Of a DNA stretch of 64,000 nt, positions 57,356 through 63,994 are shown in pieces. Numbering within the stretch: the stretch's first letter is position 1; each line of letters starts with the position of its first letter. The translations under genes and the position numbers were made by a program. The stretch is from a virus. The notes under the pieces are model-generated. The model did no database searches. It saw only the letters and a list, made by a program, of their open reading frames with translations, and was not told the DNA's origin. The stretch is taken from positions 1-64,000 of the IMG/VR virus record IMGVR_UViG_3300032240_000659; one strand, given 5' to 3'.

Positions 57356-58243
57356 TTACTTACGAGCACGTAGGATGCTTTGGGTGTTCTTCTCACCATC
57401 ACGTGAGTTTTGACCTGTTCCTGCACCTGCGTTTTGTCCTGGGGCTGCACCTTTCTTCTCAGCACCATGACCTGGTTCTTTTTTCTTAAATGCTGTTTTA
57501 CCAGCATTTGAATCTTTACGGTTGTGGATTGTGCCCAAGCCGCTTGTTAAATCACCAGCTTTTGGATTTGCTAAACCACCTTGTGTACCTTCACCTTTAG
57601 CTACACCACCACTAACGATATTAGCAGTTGTGCCGCCCATGTCGTTCTTACCAGCTACGATTGATGTATTATTAACACCGTTGTCGCCGCCTTTGGCAAA
57701 TGTGTTGTATGTCTTGCCACCGTGTTGGTTAACATATTCCATCATCATTGATGGATCTTCTAATTCTAATTCGTCGCCGCCCATGTCGTCCATTCCGCCC
57801 ATGTCGTCCATGTCGTCACCGCCCATGTGCTCTTCGCCTTCTTCGCCAGCCATTAGCTGTTCAAATTCTGCTTTTAGGTCTTCAAGTGCATCTTCTAGAT
57901 CCATTACGCGATCTTCTAATTCACCGTCACCACCTTCTTCACCACCTTCTTCGTCGCCAAATGGGTTTTCTTCACCTTCTTCTTCTTCACCTTCTTCTTC
58001 TTCACCTTCTTCTTCTTCACCTTCTTCTTCAGGTGCGCTTTCTTCTTCCTCTTCGGATTCTTCTTCCATTGGGGCTTCAGTAGGTGGCATTTCGCCATCT
58101 TCTGCAAAGTCTGATTCTAATAATTCTTCGTAGATTTCACGAGATTTTGCTACTACGATGTTGTGAAAAATCTCTTTTGCTGCTTCTTGATCTTCATTGA
58201 TCAAAGCTTCAAGCATTGCTTCAAATTGAGCGCGGTCAGTCAT
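57356..58243 (-). CDS. Acidic prohead core protein (gp67/gp68-like position)
   Basis: Very Glu/Asp-rich with EEEEGE tandem repeats; sits between portal and protease as T4 gp67/gp68 do. Confidence 0.55.
   Translation of the reverse strand: MTDRAQFEAMLEALINEDQEAAKEIFHNIVVAKSREIYEELLESDFAEDGEMPPTEAPMEEESEEEEESAPEEEGEEEEGEEEEGEEEEGEENPFGDEEGGEEGGDGELEDRVMDLEDALEDLKAEFEQLMAGEEGEEHMGGDDMDDMGGMDDMGGDELELEDPSMMMEYVNQHGGKTYNTFAKGGDNGVNNTSIVAGKNDMGGTTANIVSGGVAKGEGTQGGLANPKAGDLTSGLGTIHNRKDSNAGKTAFKKKEPGHGAEKKGAAPGQNAGAGTGQNSRDGEKNTQSILRARK
57950..58075 (-). repeat. Low-complexity tandem repeat encoding (E)4-5GE
   Basis: Repeated TTCTTCTTCACC units on the plus strand. Confidence 0.85.
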
Positions 58244-58599: not shown

Positions 58600-60339
58600 T
58601 TATGCGGCAGGTGGCGTTGCAGGGCCTGCTGGAGCAACTGGTGGTATACCGCCTTCAGCACCAGGTTCGCTAGCATTTGCAATATCTTCTGGTGCCGATA
58701 AATCTCCTGCGGCTCCTAAGTCGCCTTCAATACCGGCTGCACTTAGACCTGCACTACGTAGTTCTCCAGCGGCATCAGTATGTGTAGGCTGTCCTTTGCC
58801 GTTTTCTTCTGCCCACATGCGTTCGTTTTCTGCAATCTCGTCTTCACTTAATCCTAAGAAACGTTTTAATGCAAAACGTTTTGACATAAAAGGAACAGCT
58901 TGAATAGTATTAAATGTATTAATCCGTTCAGTATCAATAGCCGCTTGACGGCTACTTGCAAAGTTCATTGGCGGATTGAATTTTAATTCAAACAGATTAG
59001 CGTCAATATTAACGCCTCTGCTGTACATATACATTTTGAATTCTTCGTCAAATGCCGCAGTAATTAATGCTTGTAAACGTTCGCAATATTTGTTAAAACG
59101 CAGTTCTTGAATGTATGCAGTACCTACTCGACCGTCATTAAATGATGCTTGACTGTCATCTGCACCTGTTGGCAAGTAGCTACTTGGGATACGTAAACCG
59201 CGAAATAACTTGTTAGTAAAATATTTTAAGTCATCAATCTCGCCAAGATTCGTGCCTCCTGGTAATGTTTCAACTTTGCTTCCTCTTCCTTCAGCTGTTG
59301 TAGGGAAGAAATAATCTTCATTAATTGACAATGGATTGTAAGCACTATCGATAACATTTTGTCCGCCACCGCTTTGACTTGGAATTCTACGTTGGTGTAT
59401 TTCATTTTTAACCCTTTCAACAAAAGCCATAGCCATGTGGCTGGGCATATTACCTACGTCGATATGGAATACTCTGCGCTCTGGAGCACGTTGTATACGA
59501 TAGATTAAGATAGCATCTTCAAGTAATTCTTTTTGTTTATATACTTTAAAAATGTTCTCAAGCAAACTGTTACCAAATGGATAGTTGTTATCCAACCCTT
59601 CACTTAGGCTTAAATGTACTACATGTTTAGCGTCAATTGCGTGTTCAGTTTCAGTTAGTCCAAAACGGCTACCGCTACTATTAGGGTAAGAACTTGATGC
59701 ACCTCGCTGTGATCCAGCTGAACCAAATCCGCTACTAGGAATAGATCCTGCACCATTATTGCGAGGATTAACATTAGGTGTAATCATGGTAGCAACTAAA
59801 CTTGTAAAGTTAGGTGCTAGATCTTTAATTACATATTGCTCAGGCTTCTTGCCTTCGCTTTCGTTGACAATGATTTTAACAATTTTACTAGGATCAACCC
59901 ATGTCCACTTTTGTGTTTCTGGATCACGAATAAAAAAAGCATCACCGTACTTAAATGTATTACGAACAATTCTAAAAATCCTAGTGTCAAACTGATTTAG
60001 TTTAACCCATTGTTGCATGTACTCGCCTAAGATACGAATTTCACTGTTAGTGGCTTTGTTGCGCCAACTGACTGTAAAAGGACTTTTACCGTCTTTGAGT
60101 TTTTGCGTACAAAATTCTGCTAAAATATCTAAGGCTGCATTAACTTCTGGATCGCTGTCCATAACTTCGTATTGCGTATAACGTTCAATACGATTTGGGC
60201 TACCAGTGTACACATCAGGCAGATAACTTGAATAATTTGATTTTGCTGGGCCTGGGCGGTTAGCAGAATCCATACCCGATATAGTGGTTAAACCGTTAGT
60301 GCTTACAGCTACTGGTGAGAAATATTTTTTCCAAGTCAT
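58600..60339 (-). CDS. gp20: Portal protein (T4 gp20-like)
   Basis: Y..MD.D.EV..ALD; EDA..IYR..RAPERRVF.IDVGNMP; EDYFFP...GRGS..ETLPGG.NLGEIDD..YF..KLFRGL.IP. Confidence 0.97.
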   Translation of the reverse strand: MTWKKYFSPVAVSTNGLTTISGMDSANRPGPAKSNYSSYLPDVYTGSPNRIERYTQYEVMDSDPEVNAALDILAEFCTQKLKDGKSPFTVSWRNKATNSEIRILGEYMQQWVKLNQFDTRIFRIVRNTFKYGDAFFIRDPETQKWTWVDPSKIVKIIVNESEGKKPEQYVIKDLAPNFTSLVATMITPNVNPRNNGAGSIPSSGFGSAGSQRGASSSYPNSSGSRFGLTETEHAIDAKHVVHLSLSEGLDNNYPFGNSLLENIFKVYKQKELLEDAILIYRIQRAPERRVFHIDVGNMPSHMAMAFVERVKNEIHQRRIPSQSGGGQNVIDSAYNPLSINEDYFFPTTAEGRGSKVETLPGGTNLGEIDDLKYFTNKLFRGLRIPSSYLPTGADDSQASFNDGRVGTAYIQELRFNKYCERLQALITAAFDEEFKMYMYSRGVNIDANLFELKFNPPMNFASSRQAAIDTERINTFNTIQAVPFMSKRFALKRFLGLSEDEIAENERMWAEENGKGQPTHTDAAGELRSAGLSAAGIEGDLGAAGDLSAPEDIANASEPGAEGGIPPVAPAGPATPPAA

Positions 60340-60351
60340 TTAAATTTGTCC

Positions 60352-62634
60352 TTAGGCTGCTGTCCTGCTACCTGCTTTGCCTGCATATTTTGCAGTTTTA
60401 GAACTGGCATCGCTGATATCAGCAGTGTGTGCAACCATCTGCCCCATAGTCTTATTTAACTGATTAATAGCTTCAAGTATTTTAGTTTGGATGTCATCCG
60501 GTGTAGCTTGCATTTTTTTAATTTGAGCATCAGCATTGTTGTTTGCAGTATCAGCCCATTTATATCCGGCGGCTTCAGCTTCTTGTTGCGATTGAGATTT
60601 TTTAGGAGCAACATCGGATGCTTTTGGTAACATTGGCAACTTTGGAAATTCTGGTTGTTTGATATTAGACATGCCAGCTGTTAATCCTTTAAACTGCCCT
60701 TCTAGTTTCCCTAACATGTCTGTCGGTGCATTAGGTATTTTAATCTCAGGCATCTTAACTGATTGTAGCTGTTTAGTAATTTGTTCAAAAGGATTGTTAT
60801 TTTGCTCAGGCATCTTAACTGATTGTAGCTGTTTAGTAATTTGTTCAAAAGGATTACCGCCTTTTGTTGACATGTTATCTGCAAGGGATTTAGTTTGTCC
60901 TTGCATTTGAGACATCATGTCTTTCATAAACTCTGGAAGTTTAGCTTCTGGAACAACTGCTTCTTTACCGTGTAGTTCAGATAACCCGCCTTTGCCCCAA
61001 TCTTTAGCAAACCAGTCACCAAATACTTCTTTAGATCCAAGTGTTTGCTTAACTGGTTTTGGAGCTTGTCCGGGCTGAGTATCGCCCAGTACAGTTCCCG
61101 GTGTAGGAGTATTGCTATTACTAGCAGAAGACGTTTTATCAATAGCTTCTTTAATTTTATTGCCTACAGGTGCAATAAGTTCTTTGTTCTTTTCTGCAGA
61201 TGTTTGTCCTAGTTTCCCGCTGAGGTATTCAATCGCATCAGCAGTGCCCTTAATAAGTTTTGGTGATCTACCAAACTCATCGTTAAATTTAACTAGCTCA
61301 GTTGCACCAGCAACTGCTAGTTTTCTAAAGTTTTCTTGTCCTGCATTTAGTAAACGAATACCAGTTTGCCCTTCATCTACTTGGCCAGCATTTGGACCTA
61401 CACCAATTTGTCCTGCTTGCTGTCTCTTTGAAATTTCTGTTTGTGTTTGTTGAGCTTGTCTAAAATCTTGACCTGTTTCTCTAGCAACTGTTGCTACACC
61501 TGCTCGTTCTTTGTTTTCAACAATTAATTTTTTTTGTTGTTCAGCAATTTCGCCTGTGCCCTGCAAAGCCAGTCGAGCATAGCGCTCACTACTTTGCCAT
61601 TCATTGATTTTTGCTTTTGCGGCTGCTAAGGCTGCATCTGCTTGTTGTTTTTGTGCTTCGGTTGTTGCACTTTGTTGCATTCTAATAGCACGTTGAAAAT
61701 CACCGGCAGCTGGCCCTAGAGCATTTAATGTGGCCAAGTTATCTTTAGTCATTCTACCGCCTGAAGCAATAGTTTGAGCCAAGTTACCGATACTAGGTCC
61801 CATATTTCCAAGAGCAGCTTCAGTTTTTGTAAACGCTTCTCTTTGTTTGTCAGTCATCAAGTTCATAGCTAGAATAGCTTCTGGACTCTTTAGTCGTTCC
61901 TTTAATTCTGCTTCAATTACTTCTCTGCTTTTACCAGATGCTCTTGCCGCTAGATCAATATTTTGTGCTAGTTCTGCACTTGCTTGAGCTAGCTCTCTAC
62001 GGCCTTCTGCATCATCGCGCAAGTTCTTTTTAGTGTTAGATGCCATAATAGCGGCAGCGGAATTAAGTCCTTCAACACCGCCAGCGGCCGTTGCCATTTT
62101 TTGTCCTAGATCACTTTCAATAGTTTCTTGACTTAGTTTTAAGAATCGCTGATTAGCATCTTGTGCATTTAATCCAATGCCTGTTAAACTTGGGCCCATG
62201 TCTTTGAGCAATTTTAAATTGCCGTCCATGGTCATACCGGCTGCTTTAGTTTGTGCGGCAAATTCTACAACATTATTTCCGCCAACGCCTTGCTTGCCAG
62301 CTTGTGCTATATTTTCACGGCCTTGTTCTAATGTTTGAACAAATCCACCTAACGTTTTTCCAACACCTGGTGCAAAGCTAGCAAGATTGCTGAATACTGT
62401 TGCCGCTTCTTTACCGTGTGCCCCAATACCCATAAAAGCAGATATGACGGGCGCGGCTGCTTTGCCTGTTTCTTTTAAGTTGTTATAAAAATCAGATAAT
62501 GCAGATTTTTGGCTAGTATCCGTACCACTAGGTGTTCCGCTTGTGCTAGGCTTTGACCCAGAATTGCCCCCAAATACATTTTTCAATGCACCCTCAAATG
62601 CGCCTTGCAACTCCGATAGTGAATAGTCAGCCAT
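60352..62634 (-). CDS. Tape-measure-like helical protein (760 aa)
   Basis: Ala/Gln/Lys-rich helical repeats; ELHGKEAVVPE motif seen in phage tape-measure/tail proteins; divergent from the gp26-like gene. Confidence 0.55.
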   Translation of the reverse strand: MADYSLSELQGAFEGALKNVFGGNSGSKPSTSGTPSGTDTSQKSALSDFYNNLKETGKAAAPVISAFMGIGAHGKEAATVFSNLASFAPGVGKTLGGFVQTLEQGRENIAQAGKQGVGGNNVVEFAAQTKAAGMTMDGNLKLLKDMGPSLTGIGLNAQDANQRFLKLSQETIESDLGQKMATAAGGVEGLNSAAAIMASNTKKNLRDDAEGRRELAQASAELAQNIDLAARASGKSREVIEAELKERLKSPEAILAMNLMTDKQREAFTKTEAALGNMGPSIGNLAQTIASGGRMTKDNLATLNALGPAAGDFQRAIRMQQSATTEAQKQQADAALAAAKAKINEWQSSERYARLALQGTGEIAEQQKKLIVENKERAGVATVARETGQDFRQAQQTQTEISKRQQAGQIGVGPNAGQVDEGQTGIRLLNAGQENFRKLAVAGATELVKFNDEFGRSPKLIKGTADAIEYLSGKLGQTSAEKNKELIAPVGNKIKEAIDKTSSASNSNTPTPGTVLGDTQPGQAPKPVKQTLGSKEVFGDWFAKDWGKGGLSELHGKEAVVPEAKLPEFMKDMMSQMQGQTKSLADNMSTKGGNPFEQITKQLQSVKMPEQNNNPFEQITKQLQSVKMPEIKIPNAPTDMLGKLEGQFKGLTAGMSNIKQPEFPKLPMLPKASDVAPKKSQSQQEAEAAGYKWADTANNNADAQIKKMQATPDDIQTKILEAINQLNKTMGQMVAHTADISDASSKTAKYAGKAGSRTAA
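60745..60855. repeat. Exact 51-nt direct repeat, period 60 nt
   Basis: CTCAGGCATCTTAACTGATTGTAGCTGTTTAGTAATTTGTTCAAAAGGATT at 60745-60795 and 60805-60855, encoding NPFEQITKQLQSVKMPE twice. Confidence 0.95.
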
Positions 62635-62658: not shown

Positions 62659-62681
62659 TATAAATACCTATGTTATATTTA
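62659..62681. promoter_or_regulatory. Face-to-face late promoters: TATAAATA at 62659-62666 (plus) and TAAATA at 62676-62681 (minus)
   Basis: The plus-strand site is an exact T4 late consensus; both sites lie in the divergent gap between the tape-measure-like and gp26-like genes. Confidence 0.7.
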
Positions 62682-62695
62682 TCCGGAGTCCTATC

Positions 62696-63523
62696 ATGGC
62701 CAATAACCCACTACAAAAGTATTTTCGTCAACCAAAAATTTTTATTAACTTGCCTAGTCACGGCATTTATAATAAAGAAGGAACACTCAACGGAGAGCCA
62801 ACTAACATGCCAGTTTACGGTATGACTGGTATGGACGAAATTATTGTAAAGACTCCAGATGCATTGATGACCGGAGAAAGTACAGTTAAAGTTGTTGAAA
62901 GTTGCTGTCCTACTGTTGCAGATGCTTGGGGTTTAAGTGTTTTAGATACTGATGTTATATTTGCAGCCATTAGAATTGCTACCTACGGAAACATATTAAG
63001 CCTGTCAAATACCTGCACAAATTGCAAGACAGACAGTGATTATGACGCAGATTTAAATAAAATCATTGATCATTTTGCAGCCTGTAAGTACGATAACACT
63101 ATTATAGTTGACAATTTAACAATCAAAACACAGCCGTTAACCTACAAACAAAGCACAGATTTCAGTTTAAAAAACTACGAATTACAACAAAAGTTAGCAC
63201 AAATACAGCAGATGGAGGATACTCCAGAACGTCAGCATAATATTAATTTACTATGGCAAGAACTTGCAGAAAGTCAAAAAAATGTATTTTCACTAACAAT
63301 TGAAAGTGTAGAAGTAGACGGAACAGTGGTTACTGAACGCGGTTATATCACTGAATGGTTAGCAAATTGCGATAAAAAGATTGTAGATGCTATCAAAGAA
63401 CACATTGAATCTAACAAACAACAATGGACTATGCCAAGATTTCCAGTTAAATGTGATCACTGCGGGCACGAAACAGAGTTACTACTTGATCTAGACCAAA
63501 GTAATTTTTTCGAATTAGCCTAA
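62696..63523 (+). CDS. Baseplate hub / tail assembly protein (T4 gp26-like); start revised to ATG 62696
   Basis: MANNPLQKYFRQPKI.I.LPS; MT..DE...KTPDAL..G; D.D..F.AIRIATYG; CxxC...C.HC. GGAG SD before ATG 62696. Confidence 0.7.
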   Translation: MANNPLQKYFRQPKIFINLPSHGIYNKEGTLNGEPTNMPVYGMTGMDEIIVKTPDALMTGESTVKVVESCCPTVADAWGLSVLDTDVIFAAIRIATYGNILSLSNTCTNCKTDSDYDADLNKIIDHFAACKYDNTIIVDNLTIKTQPLTYKQSTDFSLKNYELQQKLAQIQQMEDTPERQHNINLLWQELAESQKNVFSLTIESVEVDGTVVTERGYITEWLANCDKKIVDAIKEHIESNKQQWTMPRFPVKCDHCGHETELLLDLDQSNFFELA

Positions 63524-63744
63524 TTAATACCCCGTTTGCTGAAATAGAAGCAAAGTTAGTTAGGCTAGACCAAGAAGTTAAGCAGTTTAAAACAGAATTG
63601 TTTAGACTTGCTTGGTACATGAGGGGAGGTGTTACTATCAATGACCTCCTATATACCTATAGTTTTGAAGATAGGCAAGCTATCTATACTGTTGTTACTG
63701 AAAATATGGAAACAACAAAAGAAACCCAACTACCGTTTATTTAA
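63505..63744 (+). CDS. Start-less -1-frame ORF (gp51-like / gpGT-type extension), missing from the ORF track
   Basis: Frame is open from 63505 to TAA 63742-63744: FFRISLINTPFAEIEAKLVRLDQEVKQFKTELFRLAWYMRGGVTINDLLYTYSFEDRQAIYTVVTENMETTKETQLPFI. First TTG is at 63598 and first ATG at 63619. Confidence 0.65.
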   Translation, partial: FFRISLINTPFAEIEAKLVRLDQEVKQFKTELFRLAWYMRGGVTINDLLYTYSFEDRQAIYTVVTENMETTKETQLPFI

Positions 63745-63994
63745 AGTCTTTGAATAGAGGACGATCAAACTGAGACTGTTGACCGGTGTTGGCCGTTGAT
63801 CCAGTTCCAGTAGGGCCTTGGCTTGATGCGTCAATATCTTGTTGAGCAGTTGTAGCAGGATTTCCGCCCTGTCCTGCGTTATTTCCAGTACCTTGTTGTC
63901 CGTATCTTAGTTTATCGCTGAAAAATCCTAAAAGTGCATCTTCACCCCATGCACCTAAGTATCCAACAGCTTGTCCAAATATAGAACTTGCCAT
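63737..63994 (-). CDS. Hypothetical protein, possibly the C-terminal part of a gene starting beyond the window
   Basis: Gly/Gln/Thr-rich 85 aa; the frame stays open to the window end (AAT TTT ATG). Confidence 0.5.
   Translation of the reverse strand: MASSIFGQAVGYLGAWGEDALLGFFSDKLRYGQQGTGNNAGQGGNPATTAQQDIDASSQGPTGTGSTANTGQQSQFDRPLFKDFK

Follow-up and report, generated by a model that had tools for sequence, protein, structure and literature searches.

A probable programmed -1 ribosomal frameshift at the end of the gp26/gp51-family gene in an uncultured giant phage related to T4

The window analyzed here is a 64,000-nt stretch of DNA (positions 1 to 64,000 of IMG/VR record IMGVR_UViG_3300032240_000659) that belongs to a 128-kb fragment of an uncultured virus, and the element in question is the 3′ end of its hub-assembly-chaperone gene, a member of the gp26/gp51 family (PF12322, T4_baseplate). 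Our comparisons make it very probable that the phage's single PF12322 gene ends in a programmed -1 ribosomal frameshift cassette, by which one gene of this giant lake phage of the T4 group most likely gives rise to both a short and a long version of a tail-hub assembly protein. The frameshift reading is supported because the slippery heptamer and its phase are invariant among homologs, the segment before the first ATG of the downstream frame is under purifying selection, and no start codon is conserved there. Further support comes from a covarying stem-loop, from collinear in-frame fusions found in other phages, and from the presence of one gene copy in one type of genome and two in the other.

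A GGAG sequence at positions 62685-62688, 7 nt 5′ of the ATG at 62696, makes this codon the most likely start of the gene, while an alternative ATG farther upstream (62654) is without a Shine-Dalgarno (SD)-type signal. The octamer TATAAATA that precedes the gene (Table 1) is what we take to be the T4-type late-promoter consensus. The 275-aa product matched the PF12322 hidden Markov model with 51.4 bits (cut-off, 24.5 bits; E 1.4e-13), with residues 60-272 aligned to model positions 42-218 of 219, and membership in the family was re-confirmed by a profile search of the genome fragment. The protein also matched the baseplate hub family phrog_150 (PHROG 150; E 1e-14). In total, 1652 homologs were found, and the best 120 of the 1652 were all 272-290 aa in length. 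Its nearest cultured relatives, at 26-29% identity, are jumbo myoviruses, namely 121Q/PBECO4-like and PA5oct-like phages, XacN1, Atu_ph07, and Phosso.

A first-pass annotation, made from the letters of the window alone, had proposed that a -1 slip on T-TTT-TTC at the end of the gp26-like open reading frame (ORF) fuses it to a start-less downstream frame, and direct reading confirmed the anatomy that it described. The 0-frame ends in CAA AGT AAT TTT TTC GAA TTA GCC TAA; the -1 frame is closed by a TAA at 63502-63504 and is then open from 63505 to the TAA at 63742-63744, a total of 79 codons. It had also reported that this frame has no ATG in its first 38 codons and no SD-led start, and this proved correct: a TTG at codon 32 (63598) and the first ATG at codon 39 (63619) are the start candidates, and neither has an SD sequence. 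The predicted junction peptide of the trans-frame product reads ..DQSNFF followed by RISLINTPFAEIEAK... Scans of the 79-aa extension against Pfam and PHROGs assigned it to no family.

Table 1. Coordinates of the predicted frameshift cassette and of adjoining features in the window.
Feature	Coordinates	Strand	Remarks
gp26/gp51-family (PF12322 T4_baseplate) hub-assembly-chaperone gene	62696..63523	+	275 aa in 0 frame; ATG 62696
Late-promoter-like motif TATAAATA	62659..62666	+	Direct read; 30 nt before gene start
Slippery heptamer T_TTT_TTC	63505..63511	+	X_XXY_YYZ phase with gp26-like ORF
0-frame stop TAA	63521..63523	+	3 codons past slip site; inside 5′ arm of stem
-1-frame extension	63511..63744	+	77 codons (RISLINTPFAEI...WYMRGG...TQLPFI) plus stop; no own start before codon 32
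Predicted trans-frame product	62696..63744	+	349 aa = 1-272 (0 frame) + 273-349 (-1 frame)
Putative stimulatory stem-loop	63516..63567	+	Outer stem 63516-63528 with 63555-63567; inner stem 63535-63540 with 63549-63554
760-aa neighbor	60352..62634	-	Divergent from chaperone gene; possible tape-measure or hub protein

Homologous loci were collected by IMG/VR scans seeded on the upstream domain (36-89% identity) and, as an independent set, by scans seeded on the extension motif W[YF]MRG. After removal of duplicates, 138 distinct frameshift-type junctions were available. Conservation of the heptamer and of the -1 phase across homologs had been named as a check of the original proposal, and TTTTTTC followed by G was present, in phase, at all 138 junctions; both features were unchanged down to about 25-36% protein identity. 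In the motif-seeded set, every one of the 63 non-fused loci had the -1 phase and the heptamer in phase with an upstream ORF that was 200 codons or longer. A variable phase relation had been listed as a finding that would speak against a slip, and no locus with any other phase relation was found among the 138 junctions, the motif-seeded set included. We judge the recurrence of the heptamer in the same phase to be far beyond chance.

The codon before the heptamer is AAT, AGT, GAT, ACT, CAT, TCT, or GGT, i.e., seven codons for six amino acids, and is always NNT; a third-position T occurs in 37% of codons overall in these genes. The second Phe codon is TTC in 86 of 87 loci, as opposed to 16% of Phe codons elsewhere in the same genes. 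The C of this TTC opens an invariant Arg codon, CGN, in the -1 frame, where N is T in 45, C in 44, A in 25, and G in 24 of the 138 junctions. This variation is silent in the -1 frame and alters the 0-frame residue among Val, Ala, Glu/Asp, and Gly. Residues R3, W37, R40, and G41 of the extension are invariant, its length is about 79 codons at all 138 junctions and exactly 79 in 72 of 86 loci, and the 0-frame stop lies 1-4 codons past the heptamer at 136 of the 138 junctions. Cultured jumbo phages conform to this pattern; their junction is CAT TTT TTC GAG TAATG in 121Q and JP4 and AGT TTT TTC AGA, with no start codon whatever, in PA5oct and Paride. In Atu_ph07 and Phosso it is CAT TTT TTC GCA/GAA TGA with an ATGA overlap, where the window has ATT in place of their ATG. 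XacN1 has a run of seven T (GCT TTT TTT ATT).

Coding signal in the segment upstream of the first ATG was a further check suggested by the first-pass annotation, and its outcome was in favor of the proposal. Column entropy showed that third-position variability switches at the heptamer from the phase of the 0 frame to that of the -1 frame. For codons 3-37 of the extension, which precede the first conserved ATG, the ratio of non-synonymous to synonymous substitution rates (dN/dS) was 0.44-0.46 in the -1 frame versus 0.88-0.91 when the same nucleotides were read in the 0 frame; the -1-frame value is similar to that of the flanking coding sequence (0.33-0.59). These values indicate purifying selection, in the -1 frame, on the part of the extension that precedes its first ATG. 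An ordinary start conserved in homologs, which had also been raised as contrary evidence, was not found: no start codon is conserved among the 138 junctions, of which 88 have no ATG and 60 have no ATG, GTG, or TTG in the first 30 codons. The first conserved ATG encodes the Met inside the invariant WYMRG motif.

Stimulatory RNA structures of -1 frameshift cassettes lie about 5-9 nt downstream of the slip site. In the window, the 120 nt from the heptamer onward (63505-63624) folded to a minimum free energy (MFE) of -39.4 kcal/mol (z = -6.05). The conserved core of the putative stem, in which 63518-63528 pair with 63555-63565, begins 6 nt past the heptamer, and the spacer is 4-6 nt. Pairs were counted in 28 diverse sequences on the stem taken from the window's own fold, with a slid 3′ arm and 500 shuffles as controls. 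In these 28 sequences, 79% of cells were paired, compared to 19-49% for the slid controls; changes on both sides were seen in 8 of the 13 stem pairs, and none of the 500 shuffles reached the observed covariation. Over all 138 junctions, the 62 nt after the heptamer had a median MFE of -16.1 kcal/mol, versus -7.7 kcal/mol in control segments of the same genes (p = 8e-22), with z < -2 at 91 of them. Distant clades have other stems at the same position (z = -5.9 in Atu_ph07, -3.7 in Phosso, and -3.1 in XacN1; a 6-nt spacer in PA5oct). Covariation supports a stimulatory stem-loop at this locus, and the stem accounts for the nucleotide-level conservation of GCC TAA TTA and, later, of TTAGGC. In the minimum-energy fold of the window, this stem-loop is immediately succeeded by a second long hairpin (63569-63616, + strand).

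Natural fusions of the two frames were found in other phages, which form a sister clade. When 1.84 billion representatives were screened with a profile built on the extension, 392 proteins were recovered. About 20 clusters consisted of single-ORF proteins of 319-351 aa that carry the extension at their C-terminus and have an N-terminal part above the PF12322 cut-off. A word-based search for longer proteins carrying the extension had found none, owing to its limited sensitivity, since the later profile search recovered these fused clusters. When 82 virtual frameshift products were aligned with the in-frame homologs using hhalign, the alignment was continuous through the junction over 324 columns (probability 100%, E 1.3e-92). 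The in-frame homologs have a single Phe at this point (..LDxSxxF-R-x-K-L-I..), and their junction DNA is non-slippery (e.g., ATA TTC CGG, CAA TTT AGA, or CGT TTT CGT); the in-frame forms are therefore not homopolymer errors. Sequence identity to the in-frame clade is only about 25-43%.

Gene content differs between the two types as well. The frameshift-type genomes, i.e., the window's own fragment, a complete 372-kb genome with terminal repeats, and a 199-kb fragment, have one PF12322 gene each, whereas the in-frame-type genomes (three contigs of 196-360 kb) have two PF12322 genes in tandem, one short and one long. The short tandem paralog ends just past the Phe motif or the second CxxC and has no extension. 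This contrast in copy number suggests two routes to the same pair of proteins, recoding of a single gene in one type and separate genes in the other. The order of the paralogs varies in the in-frame clade, the long gene being first in G002 (L191) and the short gene first in G001 (L197) and G003 (L198), which hints at independent or rearranged duplications.

The structure of the in-frame long form, predicted with AlphaFold2, was a single confident unit (predicted local distance difference test 90.7, predicted template modeling score 0.85), in which the extension consists of four helices (residues 249-258, 262-291, 296-300, and 304-324). Foldseek searches of the PDB with both models gave nothing significant. 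For the N-terminal domain, the best structural matches were the three solved tail assembly chaperones (TACs), with weak scores, and in a viral library TAC-labeled proteins appeared solely among the non-significant matches. These matches are suggestive, but not proof, of a TAC-like fold in the N-terminal domain. None of 46 N-terminal domains matched a TAC family of Pfam, even at E <= 5, and a profile of the long form had no match among PDB sequences. In the gp26/gp51-like domain, four Cys residues (C107, C110, C253, and C256) are invariant in alignment A1 and form a CxxC...CxxC arrangement that probably binds zinc. The second Cys pair has been lost, and ..GAPxx(W/F/Y).. stands in its place, in one subclade of environmental sequences (e.g., L091, L095, and L103), which nonetheless keeps the heptamer.

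These features are consistent with the following mechanism. Most ribosomes would read AAT TTT TTC GAA TTA GCC TAA and release the 275-aa short form, while a fraction would stall at U_UUU_UUC (63505-63511), held up by the stem-loop that begins about 6 nt farther on. Both tRNA-Phe, on UUU (63506-63508) and UUC (63509-63511), would then slip back by one base and re-pair with UUU (63505-63507) and UUU (63508-63510), so that the next codon would be CGA (63511-63513) and translation would yield the 349-aa long form. The latter would share residues 1-272 with the short form and add a helical C-terminal domain of 77 aa. By analogy with lambda gpG/gpGT and with the two separate T4 genes 26 and 51, the two forms may act as assembly chaperones, in a fixed ratio, for building the tail hub/tape-measure complex. 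We infer the slip in vivo, its efficiency, and the roles and partners of the chaperones from these comparisons.

An alternative is that the extension is a separate small gene and that the heptamer is merely the codons of a conserved Phe-Phe motif. Its translation would begin either at the Met within WYMRGG or by termination-reinitiation where it overlaps the stop, with ATT at 63514 or 63523 in the window and ATG in 121Q, Atu_ph07, and Phosso. Public records do annotate a separate small coding sequence at the site, as a hypothetical protein, in 121Q (L026, gene 595), JP4 (L200), and Phosso (L002); in PA5oct (L027) and Paride (L199) the extension is unannotated. ATGA or TAATG overlaps occur in three cultured phages, and Phe-Phe is also kept in T4 gp26 (..EFFELL-stop), which would give the motif a role at the protein level. 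However, T4 encodes its Phe-Phe as the non-slippery TTC TTT, a T precedes the motif whichever of six amino acids its codon specifies, and the Arg that directly follows the heptamer in the -1 frame never changes, in contrast to the freely variable 0-frame residue that it overlaps. Moreover, the in-frame homologs show the extension to be a C-terminal domain of the same polypeptide, 60 junctions lack any ATG, GTG, or TTG in the first 30 codons, and no SD is present. We regard a separate gene as very unlikely.

Transcriptional slippage, in which the insertion of one extra U by RNA polymerase at the T6 run would join the frames, would yield an identical protein. The homopolymer run is present, the product would be indistinguishable at the protein level, and slippage of this kind is reported to give length variants in some bacterial genes (PMC4256274). 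Nevertheless, the run is exactly six T at all 138 junctions and seven in XacN1 only, and the conserved X_XXY_YYZ phase, the conserved C that ends the heptamer, and the canonical 4-6-nt spacing of the stem-loop fit ribosomal frameshifting. Efficient slippage by bacterial RNA polymerase usually needs runs of about 9 or more, which also counts against this explanation, and we consider it very unlikely. Still harder to credit, to the point of being negligible, is that a homopolymer sequencing error split an in-frame gene or that the downstream frame is a decaying remnant. Indels in homopolymers are frequent in assemblies, and in-frame long forms do exist in other phages, but the same T6 and early 0-frame stop recur in 138 distinct sequences, which stem from independent samples, and are also present in cultured phages with completed genomes. 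The in-frame clade, for its part, has non-homopolymer junctions and is distant in sequence, and decay is at odds with the purifying selection on both frames.

Several observations weigh against a programmed ribosomal slip. The 0-frame stop is overlapped by an ATG, without a good SD, at codon 3-4 of the -1 frame in 121Q, Atu_ph07, and Phosso, and about a fifth of the first-examined environmental loci have an ATG at codon 8; separate initiation could contribute at such ATG-bearing loci. RNAalifold by itself predicted no consensus structure for the 28 sequences, no significant hairpin was found in 121Q, L079, or L097, and support for the stem comes from pair counts over a structure taken from the window's own fold. 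The trans-frame protein and its abundance are predictions from the sequence comparisons. On balance, the comparative evidence leads us to consider the cassette real and to place it among the best comparatively supported recoding sites achievable without experiment.

In systems of the lambda G/GT type, both forms associate with the tape measure, the tube protein is recruited by the longer one, and neither is part of the virion; the lambda frameshift is not known to need a stem-loop stimulator. The lambda gpG/gpGT products and the conserved G-T -1 frameshift were reportedly described by Levin in 1993 and by Xu, Hendrix, and Duda in 2004. The locus in the window resembles lambda G/GT in the predicted -1 slip, on an X_XXY_YYZ heptamer situated a few codons short of where the upstream ORF ends, in the N-terminal domain shared by the predicted short and long products, and in a downstream frame without a start of its own. 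In addition, the T4 members of the family are classed as assembly chaperones, and the adjoining gene may encode a tape measure. In contrast to lambda, the protein is a PF12322 member of 275 aa with a zinc-ribbon-like CxxC...CxxC rather than a member of a ~130-aa Phage_TAC Pfam family, the gene is divergent from the putative tape-measure gene instead of lying between the tube and tape-measure genes, and there is a strong, covarying stem-loop. The -1 frameshift of the G-T region is conserved in long-tailed phages, where lambda gpG/gpGT are tail assembly chaperones (PMC5009743), and a 2016 review treats T4 as the exception to G-GT frameshifting.

The Escherichia coli dnaX -1 frameshift system (tau/gamma) has a similar arrangement of a heptamer and a stable stem-loop at short spacing, with two products that have a common N-terminus. 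In dnaX, however, frameshifting yields the shorter of the two products with the help of an SD-like stimulator located upstream, whereas no SD-like element is conserved upstream at the present locus, where column entropy showed only coding-type conservation.

T4 gp26 and gp51 are listed as hub assembly chaperones, and gp51 is essential, with unknown function (Leiman et al., PMC3004832). T4 gp26 is 208 aa long, with PF12322 over residues 1-206, and its gene ends in GAG TTC TTT GAG TTA CTA TAA. The resulting ..EFFELL has the same Phe-Phe motif as the ..NFFELA at the end of the short form predicted here, in non-slippery codons in T4. Gene 26 is followed by gene 25 in T4, and gp51 is a divergently transcribed paralog of 249 aa in which PF12322 covers residues 1-201 and is followed by a 48-aa C-terminal tail (PF28602 in precomputed tables). 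In T4, the short and the long form are thus encoded separately, and the environmental phages of the fused type likewise use two genes. Alignment of the extension or the long form with T4 gp51 by hhalign, using either a single sequence or a 36-member alignment, gave nothing significant. A local alignment restricted to the extension and the gp51 tail was collinear but weak (probability 28%, E 6e-4), and on these results we dropped the claim that the two are homologous. The first-pass annotation had seen in this locus a gp26/gp51-like pair that is the T4-superfamily counterpart of G/GT. The cassette itself is supported, with predicted products of 275 and 349 aa; the downstream ORF, on the other hand, is not gene 51.

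Literature searches found no description of a frameshift in this gene or phage group, and no ribosomal slippage annotation was present among the public records of cultured jumbo phages examined, which points to an annotation gap in those records. What is new here is the gene family, the phage lineage, and the link of lambda G/GT logic to T4 gp26/gp51; the mechanism itself is classical. The T4 group is held by textbooks to be without such a slip, and our results suggest that distant phages of the T4 superfamily carry a G-GT-style cassette, located in the gp26/gp51 family. With relatives that encode the same two forms as two genes, the question of gp26 and gp51 becomes a testable chaperone-ratio model. 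A broader reading, to which we give somewhat less than an even chance, is that PF12322 supplies the tail assembly chaperone that has been missing for the T4 superfamily as a whole. The G-GT frameshift would then be ancestral and would survive in jumbo phages of the Rak2/121Q/PA5oct/XacN1/Atu_ph07 type and in large environmental clades, while T4 and a sister environmental clade would have replaced it by duplication into short (gp26-like) and long (gp51-like) genes. If true, this would explain T4 as the textbook exception to G-GT frameshifting as well as the role of the enigmatic, essential gp51.

The 760-aa neighbor had no Pfam, PHROG, or PDB sequence match. By language-model features, its nearest named clusters were tape measure proteins (score 0.92), which is a weak lead only toward a tape-measure identity. 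At the equivalent position, 121Q encodes a structural protein of the virion, and the PA5oct counterpart was detected by mass spectrometry. An exact tandem duplication of the 17-residue NPFEQITKQLQSVKMPE was observed near the C-terminal third of the 760-aa protein, the rest of which is rich in Ala, Gly, and Gln. On the other side of the cassette, a convergent ORF of 85 aa (63737-63994, - strand), rich in Gln, Gly, and Thr and without a family match, overlaps the end of the extension ORF by 8 nt. A T4-type portal gene is located nearby (58600-60339, - strand). Two ORFs downstream of the portal gene, with a 79-aa ORF in between, a 295-aa, extremely acidic protein is encoded (57356-58243, - strand); it contains long Glu/Gly runs and repeated MGG/DDM motifs and may be a scaffold or internal head protein.

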